A stretch of 13,223 bases of DNA, taken from the NCBI GenBank assembly GCA_043819555.1, contig JBDREQ010000029.1, forward strand, positions 1 to 13,223. Reading direction: 5' to 3'. The stretch is from Candidatus Zixiibacteriota bacterium. Lineage in GTDB: Bacteria > Zixibacteria > MSB-5A5 > GN15 > JAAZOE01. The notes beneath the pieces were generated by a model. That model was not told the origin of the DNA. It was given only the letters and a program-made list of their open reading frames with translations, and made no database searches. Below are positions 95 through 13,223 of this stretch, piece by piece; within the stretch, counting starts at the first letter, position 1, and every line of letters starts with the position of its first letter. Both the position numbers and the translations under genes were made by a program.

Positions 95-133
95 TATATC
101 ATGTCGGGTTATAATAATCGGTCATGGGGGGTA

Positions 134-161
134 TTGACAAATAGCATCAAGCTGTTATATT
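134..161 (+). promoter_or_regulatory. Sigma70-type promoter for the giant surface-protein gene
   Basis: Perfect -35 TTGACA (134-139), 16-bp spacer, and extended -10 TG-t-TATATT (TG 153-154, hexamer 156-161). The predicted TSS near 168 lies upstream of ATG 239. Confidence 0.6.
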
Positions 162-238
162 GCACTATACTACAGCTTGCCGCTCATTGCGATTCAGTTT
201 TGCAGGGACAAATATATCTTTTAAGAAAGAAGTACGAT

Positions 239-3200
239 ATGAAAGCTAAATTAGCACTGGCGATTACGGTCGCATTAGGGGTTATTCTATGCGTACCTTC
301 GGCGTTCGCCCAGACTAATGTCAGCGGACTTATTTCTACAAATACAAATTTAGCATTGACAGGAAGCTTAGATATTGACGCAAACGGATTCAACACAGGC
401 ACTTACCAATTAACCGCTCAGGCAGATCAGGTCCATGATACTCTCTGGGTACAGAATTGGGAATCAGGCTGGGGAAGCTGGTGGGTCGATGGCGGTCAAT
501 GGCAGGGGGGCGTTCCAACCTCCGGTCCGGGTGCGGCCTATTCGGGCAGTAATTGTGCCGGTACAGTTCTTGACGGCAATTATGTCGAACCTCCCTACGG
601 TGGCGGCAGTCAAACAAGTCGGCTAATCAGTCCCTCGTTTGTGGTACCATCAGATAATCCGAGATTGAGATTCAATCATTGGTACAATTTTAGCTGGAGT
701 GACTATGGATTTGTTCAGATACGTGCCAATGGCGGCGATTGGGTCACCGTCTTTGGGAATTACATTTGGAACAGCAATGGCTGGACTCGACCATCGATTG
801 ACATGTCAATGTACGCTGATTCCACTGTGGAGATTGCTTTTGTAATTACGACGGAGAATAGTGCGAGTGCTTATGCTGGAGTTTCTGCGCCGGATGTAGC
901 CACGGGCTGGTATGTGGATGATATCGTAATCGAGTATGGGCCTGAGATTCTAGTCAGTCCTGAAAATTTCGAATCAGGTGATGTTAACTGGTGGGTTGAT
1001 CGCGGTCAATGGCAGGTGGGAGATCCAACTTCCGGTCCGGTTTCGGCCTATTCAGGTAGTAATTGTGCTGGTACGGTTCTGAACGGCAACTATGCCGAAC
1101 CTCCTTATGGTGGTGGCAGTCAGACAAGTCGCTTGATTAGTCCCTCGTTTGTGGTACCATCAGACAATCCGAGATTGCGATTTAATCACTGGTACAATTT
1201 TAGTTGGAGTGACAACGGGTATATTCAGATACGTGTCAATGGCGGCGAATGGGTTACATTATTTGGAAATTATATTTGGAAAAGTAACGGTTGGACTCAG
1301 CCATCAATCGACCTGTCAACATATGCCGATTCCACTGTTGAAATTGCGTTTGCAATTACGACGCAGAATAGTTCAAGCGCTTATGCCGGAGTTTCTGCGG
1401 CGGATGTGGCCACTGGCTGGTATGTGGATGATTTTTTAATCGTGCATGGGGAAATTTCGTTTGTCAGTCCTGAGGGTTTCGAGTCGAATGATGGCGATGC
1501 CGACTGGTGGGCAAATTATGGCCAATGGCAGTTGGGAGTTCCTACATCCGGTCCGGATTCTGCATATTCGGGTAATAATTGTGCCGGTACAGTTCTTAAT
1601 GGCAACTATGCCGAACCTCCCTACGGCGGCGGCAATCAAACAAGTCGCTTGATCAGTCCTTCATTTGTAGTACCTTCTAACAATCCAAAATTAAGATTCT
1701 ATCACTGGTACGATTTAAGCTGGAGCGATTATGGTTATGTGCAAGTAAGAGTAAATGGCGGTGAATGGGTTACGGCATCAAGTACATTTAGTTCAACCAG
1801 TGGAGGATGGACACCAGCGCAAATTCAATTGTCTGACTATGTGGGATTAACTGTAGAGGTAGGATTTCTTATTACAACACAGAATGATCCAAGCGCTTAT
1901 GCCGGAGTTAGTGCCCCTGACGTTTCTACCGGTTGGTATATCGATGAGGTGTCGATTGAACCTCCGGGAGAACAACCGCCTCAAATAGTATGTCCATCAT
2001 CACCCCTTGACGTACTTGCCAGTATTCCCGGCGAAGTTTGCGTGCCGCTCAATATTATCAATGCTAATACGGTAACCTGCTGGAATGGCGGAATCGGTCC
2101 CTATGGTACTTGGAATAATGGCTCACTCTGTTTCCCGGCCCACGATACGGCCGGTACTTATGAAATATATGTAGCCGCAGAGAATTCTGTCGGTGTCGAT
2201 ACCTGCTTTGCGCTTGTTACAGTGAGCACTCCTCCGATTGATGATGATATACGTTTGACTGATGCTTCTGGCGATAGTTGGCATGGCAATGTGGCGGTCG
2301 ATGGCAGCGGAAATATCCATGTCGCTTGGCAGGATACCAGGGATGGAAATGACGAAATCTATTACTCCAAGCTGGACAATAATGGCAATACGCTTGTGGA
2401 TGATGCCCGATTGACAAACGATAACGCACAAAGCGTATGGCCAAGAATTGAACTTGATGGATTAGGTAATGTCCATATAGTATGGATTGATGAGAGAAGC
2501 AGTGGACCAGAATTATACTACACTAAATTGGATATAGACGGAAACACTCTGATAGATGATAAAAGGTTAACATTTAACGGCAGTAATAACTGGTCCCGTG
2601 AATTGTTAGTGGATGATAATAACAATCTCCATATTTTATGGGCAAGCGATGGGGAAGGTAATTTTGAAATTTACTATGCCAAATTGGATAACAATGGCGA
2701 TCGCTTGATAAATGACATACGCATAACCAATGCTGTTGGTGAAGGCAAATGGCCTAAATTGGGTGTTGATGACACCGGTGATATTCATCTGGCGTGGAAC
2801 GACTCAAGAACCGGCAGCGGAGAAATCCATTATAAAAAGTTGGATAATTCAGGAATTACTCTGGTGAACGACACAAGATTGACATATGATGGCAGTGCCA
2901 CAGGCGCGCCCTTCCTGGAGGCGGATAAATCAGGCAACATTCATATCATTTGGGCAGACAATCGAAATGGTTTTGACGAGCTTTTCTTTACGAAATTGGA
3001 TAACCTAGGAAATACACTGATAGATGATAAACAACTAACAACTGTATACTGGGGACGCTGGATGGATATTGATAATTCAGATTGTCTCCACGTCATATGG
3101 TCGGATGACCGCGATGGCAATGATGAAATTTATTATGCCAAATTCGATAACAACGGCAATAAGATTATCGCCGATACAAGATTGACTGATAATAGCGCAG

Positions 3201-6200
3201 CCAGCTGGTGGCCGAGAATCTGCGTTGATGAAACTTATAAATATCATGTGATATGGGATGATGATCGCGATGGTAATCGAGAGATTTACTATACCAACGG
3301 AATCTCATTGCCTGAAATAGAGTGTCCGGAAACAACACTTTATGAGACTATTAACGCAACCGGAATTGAGGTTTGTGTAGATCTTCCAATATACGGTGCA
3401 GATACTCAGGACATTTTTATTGATGGCGCCAACTGGGCGGACAACACTTTATGTTTCATTGCCGATAGTCTTGGCTTATACCAATTTACCGTTATTGTAG
3501 AAAACGCAAATGGCGCAGATACTTGTACTGTTTCAATTAATGTCAATAATCAACCAACAGTTTTATTTTACGAAGATTTTGAAGATGGAGTGCTCGATTC
3601 AAGGATAAGTATCCAAACGGTTGGATCATTCAATTATGCTCCGGATATTAAAGACCTCACCTCTTTCGGAAGTACTAAAGCATACGGATATGGGCGATCA
3701 ACATGCAATGCAAGTTGTTTTTATAATTACGTAACAAGACTTATAATCACGTTTCCCGCGCCAACCTATGCCCATGCGCTTACATTTAAGGAGATGGAAC
3801 TATACGGTAATTGGGGAGCGAAGGGCATGATCTTAATTGATGGAGAATTATTTACACCCGGCGACCAGCATTTTGGTCGACTTCCCCACAATGATCATAC
3901 ATCCGATACATCTTATCGCGTACCGGTATTCCTGATTGATAAAGAAGTTACCACCGTCGAAATTCAAGTTTATGATATTACAAACCGGAGTGAAATTTTC
4001 GTCGACGATATTACTATTTGGGCCGAAGAAGTATTTGCGAGTATTGAGTGTCCAGATACAGTACTTCATAATTCCATTAACCAAATCGGTACAGAAGTTT
4101 GTGTAAATCTGCCTATATACAATGTTGATGCTCAGGATGTTATTGTGGATGGGGGTTATTGGGTGGATAGTACCCTGTGCTTCATGGCCGATAGCATTGG
4201 TATTTACCAATTTATGGTAATAGCAGAGAATGCCTTCAATGCTGACACATGTGAGGTAACTGTAAATGTCAATATGTCGGATTCGGAACGACGATTGACA
4301 GATGCTAACGGAGATAGCTGGCATGGCAACGTGAAGGTTGATGGCAGCGGCAATATTCATGTCGTTTGGGAAGATACCCGGGATAACAATTCAGAAATCT
4401 ACTACTCCAAGCTGGATAATAACGGAAATACGCTAGTTGATGATATTCGTCTGACAAACGATAACGCGGAAAGCGTATGGCCAAAAATCGAATTTGATGG
4501 ATTGGGAAATGCTCACGTACTTTGGATTGACCAGAGAACCGGTAATTCAGAAGTATACTACACCAAATTGGATTTAGATGGCAACACCTTAATAGGTGAT
4601 AAAAGATTGACGTTTGAAGGTAATAGTAATTGGTCACGTGAATTGAAAGTCGATGATAATAACGATCTACACCTTTTATGGACAAGCGATCGGGATGGTA
4701 ACTTTGAGATTTACTACGCCAAATTGGATAACAATGGTGATCGTATAATAAACGATATACGTTTGACCAATGCTGCGGGCGAAGGCAAATGGCCTAAATT
4801 GGTTATTGATAGCAATGGTGACCTACATATAGCCTGGAACGATGCCAGAACCGGCAACGAGGGGATGTTTTATAAGAAGTTGGACAATGGCGGCAATACC
4901 CTGATTAATGATACTAATATATCAAATGCGGGCAGTATTTATGGCGCACCGCACGTCGATGTGGATAAGTCAGACAATATCCATATTACGTGGGGCGATA
5001 ATCGGAATAGTAACAATGAGATATTTTATACTAAATTGGATAACATTGGAAACACTTTAATAGATGATAAATTGATAACAAGCTGGGGTAACTATGGCTA
5101 TCTTCAGGATATTGATAATTCAGGCAACCTTCATATAGCCTGGTCTGATGTCAGGGATGGCAACGATGAAATCTATTATTGTAGACTGGACAACAGTGGC
5201 AATAAGATTACCGCCGATACAAGATTGACTAATAATAGCGCAGCCAGCTGGTGGCCGAGAATCTGCGTTGATGAAACTTATAAGTATCATGTAATATGGG
5301 ATGATAACCGCGACGGCAATCGAGAGATTTACTATACAAATGGAATTTCAATGCCTGAAATGGTAGTTGCACCCACCAATCTGCTATTTGAGACTACTGA
5401 AGATTCGGTTGAGCCGCCTACCCCACAAACGATAAATATAAGCAGTTCGGATGCTCCCGGGGCTCTTGATTGGAATGCGATAATAGCAAAGGGGGCAGAT
5501 TGGCTTGAAATCAGTCCCGCAACCGGAACTAATCCTGCAAGTGTGACAGTGTCGATTAAGCAAAGCGCCCTGCCGATGGCAGCCGGTATTTATAACGGAT
5601 TAATCAAGTTTAGTGATGACGGAGTATGGAATTCTCCTGTTTATGTAAACGTGACTTTGTTCGTTGAATCCGGTGTTGATGTTGGTGATTATGTAGCAGA
5701 GGGCGGAACCACATTCCAGGTTCCGATTAATCTTTATACGACTGATCTATTGACCGATTTTACCCTGCCGCTTAAGCTAAAGACTATTCAACCTGATAAG
5801 GTAAAACTGGATTCGATATATTTTGATCCGCTCTATATCGATTCGATAATTTACATCTCTGATAGTGAAATCGCTTTTCAGCCGATCCAACCGCCTCCAA
5901 TACCCGAAGACACGGCCGTTACAATCGGCTTTGCCGGTATCTCGGTTGGCCTGGATGCAGCGCCTGAAGTATTCTACTTCGATACCACGACAGTTACACA
6001 TAATGAAATTGCCTATTCTTATCAGTTTGTCAAGGCCACCGGCGATACTATCGTTCCCGAATTTGATAAAGGCGTATATCAAATAGGTGAGACGCCGCGA
6101 GTGTCGTTAACCATTGAAGATTTAAATTGCCCGCAGGGAAGTATGATTGGTGTGCCGGTTACCGCACTTGGTATTGAGAATGTAGGCGGATTACAGCTAA

Positions 6201-7714
6201 GCATAAGTTATGATCAATCTGTTGTGCGCACTGATTCGGTGATTGTATCATCTGATTATTTCACTCCGACCGTTAATGACACTCTGGGTATCATTTATCT
6301 GGCATGGACTAATCCGGCTAATCCATTTACGGTAACGGATAACGAAGCTCTGTTGACTTTATGGTTTACCGGAATCGGTAATGCCGGGGCAATCAGCTCA
6401 ATTTCATGGACCGGTTCGAATATTCTGGGAACACCTAACGGCAGTCCTATTCCAAATATCGAGTATATTGACGGAAGCGTGCAAATAATTGACAATGCGG
6501 GGATCATTTCCGGACGGGTAAGCTACTATACTTTGTCGAGCAACATTGCCGATGTTGAAATACATGTAGCTGGCCCTGGAAATGACCAGGTCATTACCAA
6601 TCAGGATGGCTGGTATATGTTTGAAGGAATGCCAGACGGTAATTATACGGTTTCTGCAACCCATGATGCCGATGATGCTGGTGTGGATATTCTGGATGCA
6701 ATATTAATCATGAATAAGCTTGCCGGTATAATTGATCTCAGTCCATACGAATCTGTGGCCGCAGATGTTAACCAGGATTGTCAGGTAAAGATTGTGGACG
6801 TGGTAAAGATATTGCGCAAAATTACCATGCTTGAGAATTTCCCAGGCAATTGGTCATTTATGGACCGCTCGTTTGCGATTGGCAATGACAATTGGTGTGC
6901 AGCCCCAAATAATATTTCCAGGACTGTGGCTGGAAACAGCCTTATGGATTTGCACTTTGTCGGCGTTCGCAAAGGGGATGTCAACGGTGACTGGAATCCG
7001 CAGAACGAGTTCTATGCAAAGCTGAAAGATAATGATAATGGACAAGTCAACATGGCATTTCGTGACGCCGTCTTTGAAGAAGATGGCCGATTTGATATTT
7101 CTCTTACTCTCTCTAATGGGAACTCTCTTGCCGGATTGGAAATTCATCTTAGTTATGATTCTGAGCAAATAGAATTCATCGGAGTAAATTCGGATATTTT
7201 GCCGGGTTTGGTTGCCAATGCGGAAGATAACAATATCCACTTGGCCTGGATCGATATTGATAAACCTCTCAAAAAATCGGATGACGTGGATGCTGTAAAG
7301 TTGACCTTTAGGATGCGCAACAATAATGATAATCCGCCTTCAATTAAATATGATCGGGTTATTGCAGCAGATGAGCGGGCAAGACAATACAGTGTTTTTG
7401 TATCCAACCTTAGTTTATCTTCCGGTGTTATTCCGTCTCGGTTTAGTCTGGCACAAAACTATCCCAATCCGTTTAACCCAATTACAAAGATTGCCTTCCA
7501 TCTTCCGGTGATAAACGAGGTCAGACTTGATGTATTTAATGTGCTTGGGCAACGGGTCCGAACTTTGGTTGATGGATTAAAGGAACCCGGAGTGCATTCC
7601 GTTATTTGGGATGGTAAGGATGATGCAGGAGCATTGGTTGCCAGCGGAATATACTTTTACAGCTTAAAGACTGAATCGCATATTGCCTGCAGAAAGATGA
7701 TTCTTCTAAAGTAA
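239..7714 (+). CDS. Giant secreted multidomain protein: jelly-roll x3, 7-bladed beta-propeller x2, Cys-rich Ig-like spacers, BACON-like, cohesin-like x2-3, carboxypeptidase-regulatory-like, dockerin-like, FlgD-Ig/T9SS type A-like C-terminus
   Basis: The ORF is open 101-7714. ATG 239 begins a Sec/SPI signal (MKAKLALAITVALGVILCVPSAFA|Q). Motifs seen: repeated W-W-x4-Q-W...RLISPSF...WY(V/I)D(D/E) units; blades HxxWxDxRDGNxEIYYxKLD; BACON-like QTINISS...DWLEISPATG...VTVSI (~5350-5670); cohesin-like VPV...GGLQLSISYD and AGLEIHLSYD; ISGRV...TNQDGWYMFEGMPDGNYTV; dockerin-like VDILDAILIM...AADVNQDCQVKIVDVVKIL and GDVNGD (6974-6991); terminal QNYPNPFNP...WDGKD...SGIYFY...KMILLK. Confidence 0.9.
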   Translation: MKAKLALAITVALGVILCVPSAFAQTNVSGLISTNTNLALTGSLDIDANGFNTGTYQLTAQADQVHDTLWVQNWESGWGSWWVDGGQWQGGVPTSGPGAAYSGSNCAGTVLDGNYVEPPYGGGSQTSRLISPSFVVPSDNPRLRFNHWYNFSWSDYGFVQIRANGGDWVTVFGNYIWNSNGWTRPSIDMSMYADSTVEIAFVITTENSASAYAGVSAPDVATGWYVDDIVIEYGPEILVSPENFESGDVNWWVDRGQWQVGDPTSGPVSAYSGSNCAGTVLNGNYAEPPYGGGSQTSRLISPSFVVPSDNPRLRFNHWYNFSWSDNGYIQIRVNGGEWVTLFGNYIWKSNGWTQPSIDLSTYADSTVEIAFAITTQNSSSAYAGVSAADVATGWYVDDFLIVHGEISFVSPEGFESNDGDADWWANYGQWQLGVPTSGPDSAYSGNNCAGTVLNGNYAEPPYGGGNQTSRLISPSFVVPSNNPKLRFYHWYDLSWSDYGYVQVRVNGGEWVTASSTFSSTSGGWTPAQIQLSDYVGLTVEVGFLITTQNDPSAYAGVSAPDVSTGWYIDEVSIEPPGEQPPQIVCPSSPLDVLASIPGEVCVPLNIINANTVTCWNGGIGPYGTWNNGSLCFPAHDTAGTYEIYVAAENSVGVDTCFALVTVSTPPIDDDIRLTDASGDSWHGNVAVDGSGNIHVAWQDTRDGNDEIYYSKLDNNGNTLVDDARLTNDNAQSVWPRIELDGLGNVHIVWIDERSSGPELYYTKLDIDGNTLIDDKRLTFNGSNNWSRELLVDDNNNLHILWASDGEGNFEIYYAKLDNNGDRLINDIRITNAVGEGKWPKLGVDDTGDIHLAWNDSRTGSGEIHYKKLDNSGITLVNDTRLTYDGSATGAPFLEADKSGNIHIIWADNRNGFDELFFTKLDNLGNTLIDDKQLTTVYWGRWMDIDNSDCLHVIWSDDRDGNDEIYYAKFDNNGNKIIADTRLTDNSAASWWPRICVDETYKYHVIWDDDRDGNREIYYTNGISLPEIECPETTLYETINATGIEVCVDLPIYGADTQDIFIDGANWADNTLCFIADSLGLYQFTVIVENANGADTCTVSINVNNQPTVLFYEDFEDGVLDSRISIQTVGSFNYAPDIKDLTSFGSTKAYGYGRSTCNASCFYNYVTRLIITFPAPTYAHALTFKEMELYGNWGAKGMILIDGELFTPGDQHFGRLPHNDHTSDTSYRVPVFLIDKEVTTVEIQVYDITNRSEIFVDDITIWAEEVFASIECPDTVLHNSINQIGTEVCVNLPIYNVDAQDVIVDGGYWVDSTLCFMADSIGIYQFMVIAENAFNADTCEVTVNVNMSDSERRLTDANGDSWHGNVKVDGSGNIHVVWEDTRDNNSEIYYSKLDNNGNTLVDDIRLTNDNAESVWPKIEFDGLGNAHVLWIDQRTGNSEVYYTKLDLDGNTLIGDKRLTFEGNSNWSRELKVDDNNDLHLLWTSDRDGNFEIYYAKLDNNGDRIINDIRLTNAAGEGKWPKLVIDSNGDLHIAWNDARTGNEGMFYKKLDNGGNTLINDTNISNAGSIYGAPHVDVDKSDNIHITWGDNRNSNNEIFYTKLDNIGNTLIDDKLITSWGNYGYLQDIDNSGNLHIAWSDVRDGNDEIYYCRLDNSGNKITADTRLTNNSAASWWPRICVDETYKYHVIWDDNRDGNREIYYTNGISMPEMVVAPTNLLFETTEDSVEPPTPQTINISSSDAPGALDWNAIIAKGADWLEISPATGTNPASVTVSIKQSALPMAAGIYNGLIKFSDDGVWNSPVYVNVTLFVESGVDVGDYVAEGGTTFQVPINLYTTDLLTDFTLPLKLKTIQPDKVKLDSIYFDPLYIDSIIYISDSEIAFQPIQPPPIPEDTAVTIGFAGISVGLDAAPEVFYFDTTTVTHNEIAYSYQFVKATGDTIVPEFDKGVYQIGETPRVSLTIEDLNCPQGSMIGVPVTALGIENVGGLQLSISYDQSVVRTDSVIVSSDYFTPTVNDTLGIIYLAWTNPANPFTVTDNEALLTLWFTGIGNAGAISSISWTGSNILGTPNGSPIPNIEYIDGSVQIIDNAGIISGRVSYYTLSSNIADVEIHVAGPGNDQVITNQDGWYMFEGMPDGNYTVSATHDADDAGVDILDAILIMNKLAGIIDLSPYESVAADVNQDCQVKIVDVVKILRKITMLENFPGNWSFMDRSFAIGNDNWCAAPNNISRTVAGNSLMDLHFVGVRKGDVNGDWNPQNEFYAKLKDNDNGQVNMAFRDAVFEEDGRFDISLTLSNGNSLAGLEIHLSYDSEQIEFIGVNSDILPGLVANAEDNNIHLAWIDIDKPLKKSDDVDAVKLTFRMRNNNDNPPSIKYDRVIAADERARQYSVFVSNLSLSSGVIPSRFSLAQNYPNPFNPITKIAFHLPVINEVRLDVFNVLGQRVRTLVDGLKEPGVHSVIWDGKDDAGALVASGIYFYSLKTESHIACRKMILLK
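440..1965 (+). repeat. Three tandem ~170-aa intragenic jelly-roll (MAM/immune-inhibitor-A-like) repeats
   Basis: The WW motifs start at 479, 989 and 1505 (periods 510 and 516 nt). All copies share SGPxxAYSGxNCAGTVLxGNYxEPPYGGGxQTSRLISPSFVVPSxNP and SAYAGVSAxDVxTGWY. In the segment of copies 1 and 2 that I compared, differences are largely at third codon positions. Confidence 0.9.
2252..3307 (+). repeat. Beta-propeller block 1 (seven ~52-aa blades)
   Basis: Seven units of the pattern DxRLT...DxxGNxHxxWxDxRxGxxEIYYxKLDNxG, running from RLTDASGDSWHG to REIYYTNGIS. Confidence 0.85.
4292..5350 (+). repeat. Beta-propeller block 2, a duplicate of block 1
   Basis: Blade-for-blade copy at an offset of 2040-2043 nt, including a perfect 52-nt match (3189-3240 vs 5232-5283). 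Confidence 0.85.
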
Positions 7715-7799: not shown

Positions 7800-8981
7800 A
7801 TGTCGGTACGAGTTTTTTATAGATTTGCATTAATGATTTTATCAATGGCTTATATCATGGTTTTGTTGGCTTGCAGTGAAAATAAAGAGCCTTCACCGGC
7901 ACCTATAATAATGGATGTTACTGCTCCAGCAAAAGTATCCAATTTTAATGTGGATAGTGTTAATCTTGGTACCGCGTGGATGTCATGGACGGCATCAGGC
8001 GATGATGGTTCGGTGGGAACATCAACTGTATATGATCTGCGATATGCTAAAAACTCCGTTAACCTCGTAAATGATTGGAATAACGCCAATGTGGCCACCG
8101 GTTTGCCGGCGCCTCGGATTTCTGGGAGCAATGAATCCTATACAATGACTGGTTTGCCCTCTGATATAGTATATTACTTCGCAATTAAAGCTCGAGATGA
8201 TGCTGCCAATATATCCATGATATCGGATATTGATTCTGCTTATTGGGAGTCTCTAGACGGAATTTCACCCGGTAAAATATCTAATTTTCAAATTGACAGC
8301 ATATACCAGGGAACTGTTTGGATTTCTTGGATAGCTACCGGCGATGATGCGTATGTGGGAACAGCGACAACCTATTACCTTCGTTATTCTACTGATTCTA
8401 TGACTCTTATTAATAATTGGAATAATGCAATAAATGTCAGCGGTCTCCCAATTCCTCAAATTTCGGGCAGTGTCGAGACATTTTCAATAACTGGTCTTCC
8501 AGCTGACACCACTTTCTATTTTGGCTTAAAGGCTACAGATGAAATGGGAAATACGTCGCCAATTTCGGATATTGAGTCCGTTCAATGGAGCGCGATAGCT
8601 CGGTTGAGACTGCCCGAATTAATAACTGCCGACTGCGACGTTGTTTCTGTTCCCATGACCGCTCATAATCTTACAGGAGTGGCTGGTCTTGAAGTTCACA
8701 TCCGGTATGAGTCACAGCAAATGACCTATGATTCAGTGACATCGGATTATGTTAGTAATATGATAACCAATGCCGATGATAGCCTGGTTCATTTTATTTG
8801 GGCGGATATTAATAATCTGGTTACAATTCCGGATGGCCAACCAATGGTAACAATATACTTTTCTGATCTTATAGGGATAAGCCTACTAAGTTTTGATGCG
8901 GAAACACAGCTCGTTGATTACTCTGGCAACCCAATGACAGTGGAATTTACCCACGGTTCAGCAGAATGCTCGGGAAAATAA
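7800..8981 (+). CDS. Lipoprotein with two fibronectin type III-like repeats and a C-terminal cohesin-like domain
   Basis: SPII signal with lipobox LLA-C (Cys25 at 7872-7874). Two 114-aa repeats start at 7914 and 8256 (DxxxPxKxSNF...SWxAxGDD...YxLRY...W..A...GLPxP...YFxxKAxD). The C-terminal domain VSVPM...AGLEVHIRYESQQ...HFIWAD aligns with the cohesin-like domains of gene 1. Confidence 0.88.
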   Translation: MSVRVFYRFALMILSMAYIMVLLACSENKEPSPAPIIMDVTAPAKVSNFNVDSVNLGTAWMSWTASGDDGSVGTSTVYDLRYAKNSVNLVNDWNNANVATGLPAPRISGSNESYTMTGLPSDIVYYFAIKARDDAANISMISDIDSAYWESLDGISPGKISNFQIDSIYQGTVWISWIATGDDAYVGTATTYYLRYSTDSMTLINNWNNAINVSGLPIPQISGSVETFSITGLPADTTFYFGLKATDEMGNTSPISDIESVQWSAIARLRLPELITADCDVVSVPMTAHNLTGVAGLEVHIRYESQQMTYDSVTSDYVSNMITNADDSLVHFIWADINNLVTIPDGQPMVTIYFSDLIGISLLSFDAETQLVDYSGNPMTVEFTHGSAECSGK

Positions 8982-9604: not shown

Positions 9605-9659
9605 TCCCCCTATTTCTGAGAAAAATATATATTTCAACAGCTATATTTAAGGCTTTACT

Positions 9660-9802
9660 ACTGTCAGCCAGACTTGGTGACAGCGAGAATCAAGGCAATA
9701 TGAATATCGAAAAGCGGCACGATGACTGAGAACCTTGAGTTCGTGGCCGAACGAAATGGCCGAGGTAGATTCATAGTTACGACCAAGTTGGCTGTGCCAG
9801 CT
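9660..9802 (-). ncRNA. Candidate structured ncRNA of about 145 nt, family not recognised
   Basis: Nested inverted repeats: 9665-9678 with 9782-9794 (13 bp plus one bulge), 9699-9705 with 9769-9775, and 9715-9722 with 9741-9749. It begins about 7 nt downstream of a perfect extended -10. The strand is inferred from that promoter. Confidence 0.45.
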
Positions 9803-9808
9803 GCCCTA

Positions 9809-9819
9809 ATTATACCACA
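9809..9819 (-). promoter_or_regulatory. Extended -10 promoter TGTG-G-TATAAT
   Basis: The minus strand reads TGTGGTATAAT (TRTG-n-TATAAT; hexamer at plus 9809-9814). No -35 is recognisable. Predicted TSS is about 9802. Confidence 0.55.
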
Positions 9820-9845
9820 AGGAATGACAGGACTCCCGCTGATCA

Positions 9846-12800
9846 TTAAATCAATCTCTCTATTAGAAGGGAATCGATTTTGCCGCCCAAATAGTCTTTT
9901 ACGTTTTTTATAACAAGTTTGGATTTAAAGTCTACAACTCTAGATTTATCACTGCGCTCATATGTGCGAATCAATGATCCCCATGGATTATCTTCACCAT
10001 CTCTTTTCTGTGCATTTTTTTTCTCGCAAAAGTTTTGATATGAAAGAAATAATTCCAATGGGAGATGTTTATCCCGTTCAAATGTAGTATCTGAGTAGAA
10101 ATTTAAATCGAGGCTCATGCGCTTTCCCTTTACATTGATCTCCTGAGATAATTTTTTCATCTTATTGCCAGTTACAGGTTTTGTCATCTTCTTTATTCGA
10201 AGATTCAAATCTGATGATAGTACATCATGAATGTAGATATCAGGCATCACGAAAATAAGACAATCTATGTTTTTCTTTACAGCTCTTTTACCCTGCGCTT
10301 TTCGATGGATACCACATTCGTTTTTTAATAATCCAAAAGCATTCATTCCGCTAATATGTAAAATTATAGAGCACTTACCGGATTGACGATTACCAGGCTG
10401 TTCACCTATAATTTTGTAACGATAACCTCTGCGCCGGGACCAGTTGATATAAACTCCCAAAAGTTCTAACAGCCATTTAATTGTACTTTTTGAGGAATCT
10501 TCAGCCTGGAGAATCATAAATGTATCAGCAGAATCATGTTCTCCCTCGAGCAAAAGCTCCATTTCGGCAGACTCTAAGTCCTTTATTAATCCTACTACTT
10601 GCGCTTTTAACCTACCTATTTCCTGCCTGGATCGTTTTTTTTCAGGAATTTTTAAGATTGATGTAATTCTATCATATGTGGATATCCACTTATTCATTCG
10701 CTCTACTTTTTGATTATGCTCCGCATATCGTGCAAGTACTTGATTAGCTTCTTTTGGATTATCCCAAAAGCTTGGGCGCAGCATTTGATTTTGTAGATTC
10801 TCCTTCTGAGATAGCGTATTATCATAATCCAATTTTGATTTCAGAAGATGAATCCTACCTTCTAATGATGCAGCGATTTTTTTCAAACCTCTATCCGGAA
10901 CTTTTATATCCGAGGAAGAAAGTTCTTTCATCTCTAAATCTGTTACTGGTTTTTCTTCAATCAAATGTAATAATTCAGCGACTGGCTTATTCCTTCTCAT
11001 ATTAATACGTATCTGGCAATCATCCGGAAGTTCTTCTGAAACCAGTAAAGAAGCAAGCGGCACCGCAATAGCCTTTTCAACAGCACGCTTTATGTGACGC
11101 GCACCATATTTTGGATCATAACCTATCTCAATAATATAATCTTTAACAGTTGGATCGATATCAATCGAGAATTTTCCGGTTTTTATCCCCTTGCGCTCTA
11201 ATACTTTGCCGATTTCACGATTAATTATTATGCTTAACACATCTTTACTAAGAGGCCGAAAGCATATGACTCCATCAAAACGGTTATATATCTCCGGGCT
11301 AAAGAAGCCCCTAACCTCTTTTAAAACAGCCTTATTCAATTCCGTCAGATCCACCTTTGTATCCGAACCAAATCCTATTTTTTGAGATGAATAATTCATG
11401 GCTCCGATATTCGAAGTCATTATGATAATACATGATTTGAAGTACGCTGGTTTACCTTCACCATCCAATAGAATTCCCTCATCCAATAATTGCAAAAGTA
11501 GGTTGTGGATATCATGATGGGCTTTCTCGATCTCATCAAATAGAACTACGCTGAAAGGATTATCTCTAATTTCTTCAATAAACCGGCTACATTTCTTTGC
11601 ATCCTCATAATGCGAACCGATCAATTTGGAAACCGCATCACGTTCATTATACTCAGACATATTCAGACGTATTATACGGCTGGGACTGCCAAACAGGTAA
11701 TCTGCCAAGACTTTGGACGATTCTGTTTTTCCAACACCGGTGGGACCAACAAATAGAAAGCTCCTAATAGGTTTATTTTCATCGCACAACCTGGCTTTGA
11801 AGGATATAACCGCCTCAATTATAGATCCCATGGCATCCTCTTGGCCAAGTACCCTCTCATTGAAAAAACTCATTATCTTTTCCGGCAATATCTTTTGTTT
11901 CTGATCGACAATTAAATCAGGAATACCTGTCAATTCGCAAAAAGCCAAGGTTATATCATCTGGAGTTATTTGGATATTTCCCTTATTAGAGGAGCCCTTG
12001 GATAATTCAACCGCCTTAGATATAATATCAATGGCTTTACCAGGAAAGGCTTTATATGGTATAAACGCACCTGACAATTCAATGGCCTCAGTAAAACACC
12101 CCTGCTTAAAATCAACTTTCCGTCGTCCGATAATATTTTGGCTGGCGTTCTTCAATATATCGGGTAATTTATTTTCGGTCGGTTCATCCACCGTTACTTC
12201 TGTAATCAATCGTTGGAAGCGAGGTTCTTCCCAAAATATTTTGCGTGACTGTTCTTGAGTCATTTCACCTATAATTGTTATCTTGCCCTGCTCAATACGA
12301 GGAATGAGGAAATCCGAAAAACTCGATTTATCGTTACTACTTATTCCAGCACCGAATATATTCGTAATATCTTCAAAATACAGTAAGATTTTTTTATCAT
12401 TACCTCCAAGATTACACAATTCTTCCAGGCGCTCCTGCCATTGACCGATATAAATTGCCCCCGCTATGATTGAAACCGTAGAAACTTGAAAAATCGTATG
12501 GCCTTTGAGAGGTTTAGGACACTTGCCTGAATTGATGATGTGCGCAAGTTGACGAACTGCAGCGGTTTTTCCTACGCCGGTGGGACCTATAAGAATTATG
12601 CTCTTTTTCGAACTATAAGCAAGGATATCGACCATCTCAGAAACTAGATTTTCAATTTCAAAAGCCTGTTGCGATTTATTTTCGCGTACTAATGCGGAAA
12701 GATTATAACCATATTTGGATAATCCCTTATGGCTGTCTGAGGATATTATCCACGTTTTTCCCTGAACATATTCCAGACCCTTTTGAATTCCACTTTCGAA

Positions 12801-13160
12801 TGATTCCGGAAGATCACCGCTAATCTGTAATGCCCTGAAAAGCATCTCAGCCTTAACAAAATCCCCTTTGGCGGCAGTTAGCCAGGCCTCATAATACGAA
12901 GCCTCGTCTTCGTTATCCAACAATTCTAATTTAGATATACATTTTTTGAGAGAGTTTTGGGGATCAAAACTATGACTCTGATGATTATCAGCATATATAA
13001 GAAGATCGCGATAAAGCTGGCAGAACATAAGATATGCTTCATCGGTTTCAAATTCAAAATCTTTTACCCATTCTTTGAGTATACTCAGATGTGTTTTTTC
13101 ATCAATTTCAAGATACTGCGACTGGAGTTTTTCCATATCCAGATCATTCAATGCAGCCAT
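9846..13160 (-). CDS. ClpA/ClpC-family double AAA+ ATPase fused to a C-terminal GGQ-less RF2-like (PCRF) module; 5' end may lie beyond the window
   Basis: NBD1 has GPTGVGKT (12564-12587), pore loop AGAIYIG and atypical Walker B LLYFED. NBD2 has RVLGQ, FLFVGPTGVGKT (11724-11747), MSEY, VVLFDEIEKAH, IIMTSN, IGF, PEIYNRFD and YGARHIKR. The last ~340 aa match RF2 landmarks (LDYD, FWDNP, GEHDSAD, AFGLLKNECGIHR, WGSLIRTY, GKIDSLL). There is no in-frame stop between 13161 and 13223. Confidence 0.9.
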   Translation of the reverse strand: MAALNDLDMEKLQSQYLEIDEKTHLSILKEWVKDFEFETDEAYLMFCQLYRDLLIYADNHQSHSFDPQNSLKKCISKLELLDNEDEASYYEAWLTAAKGDFVKAEMLFRALQISGDLPESFESGIQKGLEYVQGKTWIISSDSHKGLSKYGYNLSALVRENKSQQAFEIENLVSEMVDILAYSSKKSIILIGPTGVGKTAAVRQLAHIINSGKCPKPLKGHTIFQVSTVSIIAGAIYIGQWQERLEELCNLGGNDKKILLYFEDITNIFGAGISSNDKSSFSDFLIPRIEQGKITIIGEMTQEQSRKIFWEEPRFQRLITEVTVDEPTENKLPDILKNASQNIIGRRKVDFKQGCFTEAIELSGAFIPYKAFPGKAIDIISKAVELSKGSSNKGNIQITPDDITLAFCELTGIPDLIVDQKQKILPEKIMSFFNERVLGQEDAMGSIIEAVISFKARLCDENKPIRSFLFVGPTGVGKTESSKVLADYLFGSPSRIIRLNMSEYNERDAVSKLIGSHYEDAKKCSRFIEEIRDNPFSVVLFDEIEKAHHDIHNLLLQLLDEGILLDGEGKPAYFKSCIIIMTSNIGAMNYSSQKIGFGSDTKVDLTELNKAVLKEVRGFFSPEIYNRFDGVICFRPLSKDVLSIIINREIGKVLERKGIKTGKFSIDIDPTVKDYIIEIGYDPKYGARHIKRAVEKAIAVPLASLLVSEELPDDCQIRINMRRNKPVAELLHLIEEKPVTDLEMKELSSSDIKVPDRGLKKIAASLEGRIHLLKSKLDYDNTLSQKENLQNQMLRPSFWDNPKEANQVLARYAEHNQKVERMNKWISTYDRITSILKIPEKKRSRQEIGRLKAQVVGLIKDLESAEMELLLEGEHDSADTFMILQAEDSSKSTIKWLLELLGVYINWSRRRGYRYKIIGEQPGNRQSGKCSIILHISGMNAFGLLKNECGIHRKAQGKRAVKKNIDCLIFVMPDIYIHDVLSSDLNLRIKKMTKPVTGNKMKKLSQEINVKGKRMSLDLNFYSDTTFERDKHLPLELFLSYQNFCEKKNAQKRDGEDNPWGSLIRTYERSDKSRVVDFKSKLVIKNVKDYLGGKIDSLLIERLI

Positions 13161-13223
13161 TTTCCATCCGGCAGCTGCAATTAATTTCTCATTTACAGTC
13201 CCGGATGTTTGCCGTAAAAAATT

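Follow-up and report, generated by a model that had tools for sequence, protein, structure and literature searches.

At one end of the window, by which we mean the whole stretch of 13,223 nucleotides that was analysed, a long reading frame on the minus strand (9846..13223; stop codon 9846-9848) encodes a fusion of a Clp-type ATPase with a module related to peptide chain release factor 2 (RF2); all coordinates below refer to this strand. The frame is open at its 5' end, where the contig stops. An ATG at 13160 would yield a protein of 1104 aa, the form to which our Pfam positions refer; because residues of about 229-240 of the homologues align to base 13223, this codon is an internal Met. By the same alignment the window copy is truncated by the contig end and lacks some 230 N-terminal residues, which are of TPR type in the relatives. 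In what is left of the N-terminal helical region (12741..13223) the homology reaches to the contig end, and the relatives continue from there into TPR repeats. As read from the sequences, proteins of the family begin with a TPR region, followed by a ClpA-like D1, by D2 and, beyond a linker of some 40 residues, by a full RF2 paralogue. The linker, which leads from the D2 small domain to the RF2-like module (10884..11003), varies in sequence across the family. The gene product belongs to a protein family that is conserved but uncharacterised.

The first AAA+ module, D1 (11901..12740), is of the ClpA/ClpC type and was aligned with ClpC D1 at E 8e-23; no M domain follows it, and the fusion has a gap opposite the M domain of the genome's own ClpC. 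The alignment places a Walker A motif, GPTGVGKT, at 12564..12587 and a pore loop, GAIYIGQW (GTKYRGQF in ClpC), at 12438..12461, where the aromatic residue is retained as Y or F in 16/16 core members. The Walker B position (ILLYFED, 12369..12389) carries a non-canonical "ED" in place of the "DE" of ClpC, and the canonical form is found in 0/33 fusions. Because this motif is not canonical, D1 is predicted to bind ATP but probably not to hydrolyse it. In the second module, D2 (11253..11888; Pfam AAA_2 at 463-629, E 2.5e-46), Walker A, Walker B, sensor 1, the arginine finger and sensor 2 are all intact, and Walker B is canonical in 31 of the 33 fusions. Its pore-loop region, GSHYEDAKKCS (11586..11618), is shortened and unconserved where ClpC has GAPPGYVGYEEGGQ, and none of the 33 fusions has the GYVG pore loop. 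D2 is, on these motifs, a complete ATPase without the conserved pore-loop aromatic. An IGFG loop (11367..11378) aligns with the ClpP-docking loop of ClpC, with I595, G596, F597 and G598 invariant in 14/14 sequences, and a docking-type [IVLWF]GF sequence motif occurs in 31/33 fusions. By this IGF-type motif the motor is a putative partner for ClpP, which is present in the window's genome and in 4/4 other carriers checked. The D2 small domain (11004..11252) matches ClpB_D2-small at 637-719 with E 3.6e-14.

The first-pass annotation had called this part of the protein a Clp unfoldase. The call holds for the architecture, a double ClpA/ClpC-like AAA+ with a D2 small domain, and fails for the standard motor motifs. 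Neither canonical Walker B motifs nor aromatic pore-1 loops are found in both rings, and the motor is atypical because D1 lacks the canonical Walker B and D2 lacks GYVG throughout the 33 fusions. The likeness to ClpA and ClpC includes the two AAA+ modules, the D2 small domain, the D1 pore-loop tyrosine, the intact D2 ATPase site and the IGF-type loop at the docking position, and the M domain is absent as it is in ClpA. Unlike those proteins, the full-length relatives have TPR families at the N-terminus and no Clp_N, the protein scores 399.4 bits against a ClpA cut-off of 993 (NCBIfam), and a 345-aa RF2 module is attached at the C-terminus. Translocation by ClpA and ClpB depends on the pore tyrosine of D2. 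Since GYVG is lacking in every fusion and the D1 Walker B is non-canonical, processive threading into ClpP is doubtful. The RF module is attached to the D2 small domain, which presumably, in the geometry of ClpA, places it on the side of the ring that faces ClpP, a long way from the entry pore at D1. The two rings would share the work in an unusual manner, a dead D1 keeping its pore loop and D2 having the ATPase but no such loop.

The C-terminal 345 residues (9849..10883) form a complete RF2-like module with domains 1-4, as indicated by Pfam, NCBIfam, phmmer and structure matches. It had been proposed that the last 340 residues or so follow RF2 end to end, and a phmmer search against the PDB agrees, aligning module residues 7-339 with residues 10-352 of E. 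coli RF2 (E 2e-26). The HMM searches returned the PCRF/RF2 matches without GGQ that had been anticipated. Pfam places PCRF at 785-953 (E 4.9e-20); the last 344 residues alone match PCRF and two weak coiled-coil families and no others, with no match to RF-1 (PF00472) even at E<=1, and in the whole genome PF00472 finds prfA and prfB only. On the NCBIfam prfB model (TIGR00020), the full protein scores 120.8 bits and the module alone 125.7, both under the cut-off of 370, while the true prfB of the genome scores 520.8; the module is nearer to RF2 than to RF1 (120.8 vs 47.2 bits). The expected superposition of a predicted structure on RF2 was also obtained. An AlphaFold2 model of the module (mean pLDDT 71.6, below 50 in the last 51 residues) has RF2 (1gqe) as its best match both in Foldseek (E 1.4e-18, TMq 0.52) and in VIA-align (Z 18.9, rmsd 8.3, 318 aligned). 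The module is predicted to keep the RF2 fold, and it keeps much of the core of domains 2 and 4. An ordinary prfA and an intact prfB, complete with frameshift site, are also present in the genome, which makes the fusion an additional paralogue.

While the fold is kept, the residues by which RF2 does its work are mostly gone. The three replacements that had been noted by eye were all located in the module. The helix-5 tip, where RF2 has GxGG(T/E)E to read the first base of the stop codon, is AEDSSKS (10485..10505), with EDSS in place of GSGG; the SPF loop is replaced by a basic loop, KAQGKRAVKKN (10269..10301, by alignment with RF2); and the GGQ site, GAGGQHVN, is replaced by KKMTKPVTGNKMKK (10152..10193), in which the second Gly (G998) is the sole survivor. 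These losses are shared by the family. The RF2-invariant helix-5 glycines G111, G113 and G114 are retained in just 9-20% of 35 modules, and at the SPF site S is retained in 11%, P in 9% and F in 0% of them. Both SPF and GGQ are missing in 14/14 members aligned with the genome's own RF2 and RF1, and the absence of GGQ extends from the 14 core modules to 26/26 aligned modules. Since SPF, the helix-5 tip and GGQ are lost family-wide, the earlier description of the module as "codon-independent, non-hydrolytic" is a sound inference. To see which positions are retained, we took those conserved in at least 90% of 65 true RF2s and counted a position as kept if it was present in at least 60% of the 35 fusion modules. 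By this measure domain 1 keeps 1/1 of its invariant positions, domain 2 keeps 10/32, with the losses concentrated at the helix-5 tip and SPF loop, domain 3 keeps 2/24, and domain 4 keeps 7/10. The E, G, H and R of the ExGxHR sheet motif in domain 2 are retained in 80-100% of modules. On alignment, the module is without all stop-codon readers and nearly every conserved residue of catalytic domain 3, a pattern that fits a docking scaffold preserved and a chemistry lost. With 22 of the 24 invariant positions of domain 3 gone, well beyond GGQ itself, the module may also have lost an RF2-like reach into the peptidyl-transferase centre.

The fusion is real and conserved. Thirteen homologues on other contigs (up to 143 kb) share the architecture, with 35-47% identity over the entire RF module; ten of the 13 are 1353-1380 aa long. 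Intact fusion frames are found at six further genome loci, and the seven loci of the family come from Gemmatimonadota, Zixibacteria, Ignavibacteria, Eisenbacteria and unclassified MAGs. Three pairs gave RF-module dN/dS values of 0.13, 0.10 and 0.05, similar to those of the Clp part (0.06-0.18). Long Clp-PCRF fusions were among the top matches when 1.84 billion representatives were searched; when 24 matches picked by length or rank were scanned with Pfam, 19 had AAA_2 with PCRF and one, a non-fusion protein, had RF-1. There is also a more distant tier of Clp-PCRF fusions of 925-1404 aa, likewise without the motifs. A metagenome scan with these second-tier modules gave 80 loci, 74 of which carry GGQ and are ordinary RF2; of the other six, three are fusions (L077, L138 and the fragment L076), two have frames that the scan did not resolve (L087, L136), and one is cut by a contig end (L142). 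One variant, P0025, has a Ser/Thr kinase and degenerate AAA modules ahead of the same dead RF2, which suggests that the RF module can be moved between proteins as a part for targeting or sensing. Because every member seen comes from metagenome-assembled genomes, bench work would need synthetic genes.

To our knowledge, the GGQ chemistry is kept by every bacterial RF paralogue with a role on aberrant ribosomes (ArfB, PrfH, and RF2 with ArfA), and only archaea and eukaryotes are known to use a dead release-factor mimic together with ATP to deal with stalled ribosomes. The fusion resembles RF2 itself in its homology over all four domains, its predicted fold and its retention of FWD, the ExGxHR sheet, WGSxxRxY and DxR(T); it differs from RF2 in lacking SPF, the helix-5 tip glycines, GGQ and detection by RF-1, in falling far under the prfB cut-off, and in sitting behind a double AAA+ ATPase with no need for a programmed frameshift. 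ArfB (YaeJ) and PrfH are likewise RF-derived, codon-independent and active on aberrant ribosomes, but neither is fused to an ATPase, ArfB is without domains 1, 2 and 4 and PrfH without domain 1. Both keep the catalytic glutamine of GGQ (PMC6514570, an excerpt of section 2.4). A possible functional analogy is with Pelota/Dom34-ABCE1 and Vms1-Cdc48, in which a dead or altered release-factor paralogue acts codon-blind on the ribosome together with an ATPase. Those pairs derive from the eRF1 fold, to which RF2 is unrelated, and consist of two polypeptides each, and ABCE1 is an ABC ATPase; the fusion has bacterial RF2 and Clp parts in a single chain. Excerpts of the same survey describe Dom34 as lacking the catalytic Gln and Vms1 as binding the AAA+ protein Cdc48 (PMC6514570). 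The annotation had mentioned Clp-release-factor fusions as noted by comparative genomics; no such description was found in the literature searched. The main survey of bacterial RF paralogues lists RF1, RF2, ArfB and PrfH only, and "Clp" does not occur in its text and one supplement (PMC6514570); a text search of the ClpI paper gave no occurrence of "release factor" (PMC10149685).

A Clp motor joined to a complete RF2 without its stop-codon and release motifs points to a machine not described before, with the ribosome as its probable target. The reading we tentatively favour, at slightly short of an even chance, is that the RF2 module, which would neither read codons nor hydrolyse, brings a motor of the ClpP-docking kind to ribosomes. 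The dead RF2 would be a targeting arm that reaches into the ribosomal factor or A site whatever the codon, and the basic loops at the SPF and GGQ sites would give it a preference for ribosomes whose decoding site is empty or aberrant. The arm would deliver the hexameric motor to the ribosome, where it would extract, remodel or degrade a ribosome-bound protein, or pry the complex apart. In its logic, though by analogy only, this resembles the Pelota/Dom34-ABCE1 and Vms1-Cdc48 pairs. Against this reading count the atypical D2 pore and D1 Walker B, the erosion of domain 3, the place of the RF module on the ClpP side of the ring, the precedent of plant PrfB3 described below, the low confidence of the last 51 modelled residues, and the finding that no ribosome or translation gene is conserved beside the fusion in the neighbourhoods scanned.

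The same features could also describe a protein that has left the A site altogether. The dead RF2 would then be an RNA- or protein-binding adaptor, and the substrate remodelled by the ATPase would be an RNA-protein complex or some other client that has nothing to do with stalled ribosomes; we consider this unlikely, although it has a precedent. According to part of a review, plant PrfB3 is an RF2 paralogue without SPF and GGQ that is off the termination pathway and binds mRNA (PMC5897788). Like the module, chloroplast PrfB3 is RF2-derived and has a role other than termination; unlike the fusion, it is a stand-alone land-plant protein with no ATPase and acts on the petB mRNA 3' UTR. The ESM Atlas cluster closest by features is the PrfB3 cluster (score 0.91), which is a lead only. 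An adaptor would also agree with the near-complete erosion of domain 3 and with the charge of the window's module, which is +19 vs -14 for the genome's RF2. However, second-tier modules range from -20 to +7, and positive charge was rejected as a family trait. The retention in domain 4 and in ExGxHR, moreover, seems to go beyond upkeep of the fold, and no RNA-processing partner is conserved in the neighbourhoods scanned. RtcA lies upstream of the fusion in one lineage only.

A further possibility, which we regard as distinctly improbable, is a device of conflict or stress, in which, under phage attack or severe stress, the RF module would plug or mark ribosomes and the motor, with ClpP, would inactivate or degrade ribosomal or translation proteins to shut off translation. 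Its distribution is in keeping with such a role, since the fusion is patchy, in 3/150 other genomes sampled in the phylum and 0/9 other genomes of the window's own family (including the sole other genome of the genus), yet present in several phyla, and a broken, frameshifted remnant at one locus (L011) points to turnover. The kinase domain of P0025 matches the PADLOC PD-T4-6 models at E 4e-81, but this may be general Ser/Thr kinase similarity. The genomic context lends the defence reading of the earlier annotation little support. None of 31 neighbouring ORFs matches PADLOC at E<=1e-5, the fusion itself matches there only through generic AAA+ D2 segments (DolB and PDC-M37B models), and no relative was found in the viral contigs of an IMG/VR scan. 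The neighbours are housekeeping or surface-protein genes that differ between lineages. The neighbourhood comparison that had been proposed brought out no conserved partner gene among 33 ORFs around the seven loci, 15 more ORFs, and 11 examined by NCBIfam, nor any conserved ribosome or translation gene adjoining the fusion in the neighbourhoods scanned; two new neighbourhoods from the metagenome scan have no partner in common. The 265-aa downstream ORFs at L010, L074 and L075 appear to be antisense artefacts, with no counterpart in the window. That the fusion is an assembly chimera or a functionless, decaying prfB fragment is hardly credible, in spite of the missing start at a contig end and the broken remnant, given the same junction and architecture in 13 proteins on independent contigs and at six intact loci, the low dN/dS of the RF module (0.05-0.13), and the separate intact prfB.

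Returning to the RF2 module as a targeting arm for the ribosome, a bolder form of this reading, which we would call rather unlikely as it stands, is that FCB-group bacteria and, at a greater distance, planctomycetes have a one-polypeptide counterpart of Pelota-ABCE1 and Vms1-Cdc48, in which a codon-blind probe of the A site, descended from RF2, physically links an AAA+ motor that docks on ClpP to ribosomes in trouble. A conserved family that joins such a mimic to a Clp motor would show how, in nature, an AAA+ machine can acquire a target through domain fusion, and it would give translation quality control a new branch that can be tested directly. If the A-site-probe reading is true, it would define a new pathway of ribosome rescue, splitting or turnover, and the same probe reused on a Ser/Thr kinase would be a sensor of the state of the ribosome.

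The window is an entire contig (C29) of its assembly. The fusion is encoded on the minus strand at 9846..13223, in a frame that runs off the contig end; translation from the ATG at 13160 would yield a form of 1104 aa. Pfam places AAA_2 at residues 463-629 of this form, ClpB_D2-small at residues 637-719 and PCRF at residues 785-953. The contig end cuts this copy: base 13223 aligns with residues about 229-240 of the homologues, thus some 230 residues are missing, and in the relatives this region consists of TPR. The first-pass annotation had described a Clp ATPase carrying an RF2-like module without GGQ and SPF, and the description holds: translation recovers the motif strings it quoted at their positions, and the fusion is borne out by Pfam, by NCBIfam, by a phmmer search of PDB sequences and by the matches of an AF2 model to RF2. 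The last 344 residues alone match PCRF with an E of 7.6e-21, and the RF-1 domain is undetected in them by Pfam even at E<=1. The NCBIfam scores of the fusion are 399 bits for ClpA (cut-off 993) and 120.8 bits for prfB (cut-off 370).

In the phmmer search, residues 7-339 of the module align with residues 10-352 of E. coli RF2 (E 2e-26). An AF2 model of the module, built from eight family sequences, has a mean pLDDT of 71.6, with the final 51 residues below 50. Both Foldseek (E 1.4e-18, TMq 0.52) and VIA-align (Z 18.9, rmsd 8.3, 318 aligned) rank RF2 1gqe as its top match, in keeping with the RF2 fold proposed earlier, and the best-matching chains are the compact RF2 forms.

The residues kept by the module were examined against a reference set of 65 true RF2s, made up of 64 distinct GGQ+SPF ORFs (of 70 in a metagenome scan) and the RF2 of the window's own genome. 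Positions at least 90% conserved in RF2 were counted as kept if found in at least 60% of 35 fusion modules. By this measure the modules keep 1/1 positions in domain 1, 10/32 in domain 2, 2/24 in domain 3 and 7/10 in domain 4. Domain 2 has lost the glycines of the helix-5 tip, as well as the SPF loop and its flanking residues, and retains the ExGxHR sheet, W120 and Y128; in domain 3 the sole survivors are one Pro and the second Gly of GGQ. Neither SPF nor GGQ is present in any of the 26 modules aligned with the genome's RF2 and RF1. Core-family members have P-x-R-K-G-x-K-x-R-x-L-S at the position of GGQ and, in place of SPF, a loop rich in Lys/Arg whose length varies. The pattern therefore indicates that the decoding-centre scaffold is conserved, with the codon readers and the conserved surface of the catalytic domain replaced; the kept scaffold is presumably the part that sits at the decoding centre in RF2. 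The same module might also serve off the ribosome as a PrfB3-like adaptor for RNA or a partner, a possible reading which we consider unlikely.

The motor was compared by aligning 33 fusions, 16 from the core family and 17 from the more distant second tier, the degenerate P0025 and P0037 included, with the ClpC that the window's own genome encodes on contig C54. Walker A of D1 is present in most of them. Walker B, whose Glu is the catalytic base, never has the form DE in D1 (0/33); it is ED in 15 of the 16 core members and variable elsewhere. All 16 core members keep the aromatic residue of the D1 pore loop, and the M domain is absent from the fusions in this alignment. Walker A and Walker B of D2 are intact in 31/33, together with sensor 1, the arginine finger and sensor 2. 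Translocation in ClpA and ClpB is driven by the D2 pore tyrosine; a GYVG loop is found in none of the 33 fusions, and a nearby Y or W in roughly ten core members. Loops of the [IVLWF]GF type insert into the pockets of ClpP, and one occupies the ClpP-docking position of ClpC in 31/33 fusions, with IGFG invariant in 14 aligned core sequences. From these motifs and what is generally known of Clp proteins, the motor looks ClpP-dockable, yet no textbook threading unfoldase. ClpP is encoded in the window's genome, within a tig-clpP-clpX row, and in all four other fusion carriers checked; since ClpP is, to our knowledge, nearly universal, this co-occurrence lends weak support to a partnership.

The genome also has its own prfA and its own prfB with the usual frameshift site, the only two genes returned by a genome-wide RF-1 search. 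It further encodes SmpB, one tmRNA (tag GEYDYAMAA) and an RqcH-like NFACT protein (136214-137377 of contig C9); ArfB and PrfH were not found in it, and an ArfB-sized RF-1 ORF occurs in one of four other fusion carriers. Section 2.4 of a survey (PMC6514570) names RF1, RF2, ArfB and PrfH as bacterial release-factor paralogues, and the word "Clp" does not occur in its text or in one supplement. A full-text literature search found no description of a Clp-release factor fusion; most subscription journals lie outside its coverage, so one could exist.

The neighbours of the fusion gene vary by lineage and include oxidoreductase, ChaN-like, SPFH, formiminotransferase, peptidase C1 with dockerin, MscL, UvrA and, in one lineage, RtcA. 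In locus L010 this RNA 3'-terminal phosphate cyclase gene (3243-4280) has the same orientation as the fusion gene and precedes it by 2.6 kb, with two unannotated ORFs in between; the arrangement, seen at this locus only among those examined, resembles the PrfH-RtcB pairing. In the window the fusion gene converges on two plus-strand genes. The product of the one at 7800-8981 is 393 aa long; its N-terminus resembles that of a lipoprotein, and it has two fn3 domains and matches cohesin weakly. The 2537-aa ORF at 101-7714 carries a T9SS sorting domain (Por_Secre_tail/FlgD_ig) at its C-terminus, a cohesin domain at 2002-2129, a MAM-like segment and a BNR segment; its product, a giant protein secreted to the cell surface, is consistent with a host from Bacteroidota/FCB. 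Genes for dockerin-bearing proteins adjoin the fusion gene in two other loci, L007 and L009, probably a coincidence with the cohesin match in the window. A 60-aa ORF at 9664-9846 (minus strand), whose ATG shares one base with the fusion stop codon (TAATG), is probably spurious; it had no counterpart in a tblastn comparison of the window with the downstream ORFs at five related loci. No PADLOC match was obtained among 31 neighbouring ORFs, and those of the fusion itself cover generic AAA+ segments only; that the fusion is a shut-off device for stress or conflict seems to us improbable.

A word-indexed search with the RF module found 13 other proteins, which cover 99-100% of the module at 35-47% identity; ten are of 1353-1380 aa, all 13 carry AAA_2 and PCRF, and several have N-terminal TPR families. 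A one-genome-per-species scan gave 62 loci, 55 of them ordinary release factors and seven of the family (Gemmatimonadota, Zixibacteria, two Ignavibacteria, Eisenbacteria and two unclassified MAGs). Six of the seven have intact ORFs of 883-1385 aa. The seventh, L011 in the Eisenbacteria MAG, is a frameshifted remnant at 9656-10748 that runs, in two frames, from the last part of the D2 small domain through the linker to the RF module, with the D2-small/RF junction still visible; the ATPase part is lost, and a cytochrome gene lies upstream. For three pairs of loci, dN/dS is 0.13, 0.10 and 0.05 in the RF module and 0.06, 0.18 and 0.10 in the Clp part; a fourth pair, L009-L072, gives the same values as L007-L009. 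With these homologues, intact ORFs and low ratios, the assembly chimera or decaying prfB fragment against which the first-pass annotation had cautioned did not materialize, and an artefact is very improbable. The family is sparse: it is present in three of 150 other genomes sampled in the phylum and absent from all nine sampled genomes of the window's own family, including the one other genome of the genus.

A profile search of 1.84 billion representatives gave 4416 matches at E<=1e-3 and 27 at E<=1e-30, with the core family above 280 bits and the second tier, proteins of 925-1404 aa, at 95-150 bits. Among 24 matches examined by Pfam, 19 have AAA_2 and PCRF, and one, a eukaryote-type true RF without AAA, has the RF-1 domain. 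At source they bear nothing but automatic names ("AAA domain-containing protein", "ClpA/protein subunit release factor A", "AAA family ATPase [Pirellulales]"). In P0025 (1252 aa), which scores 283 bits against the family profile, the same dead RF2 module follows a Ser/Thr kinase and a degenerate double AAA. PADLOC PD-T4-6 models match the kinase (E 4e-81), and the protein may be a ribosome-state sensor kinase.

What is conserved as a single chain, judging by residues, is a predicted ClpP-dockable, D2-driven AAA+ ring joined to a codon-blind, chemistry-less RF2 scaffold. Our preferred reading, tentative at just under even chances, is that the RF2 module docks, whatever the codon, in the ribosomal factor/A site and delivers the motor to a ribosome-bound client. 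ArfB and SmpB, through their tails, prefer ribosomes whose mRNA channel is empty; the module would enter the site with no codon needed, and its basic loops would perhaps share this preference. Pelota/Dom34 with ABCE1, and Vms1 with Cdc48, would be analogues; as touched on in PMC6514570, Dom34 is inactive and Cdc48 is bound by Vms1. Once docked, the module would bring the motor and the TPR arm, the latter lost from the window copy, to the client, which would then be extracted or degraded via ClpP, or else the particle would be pried apart.
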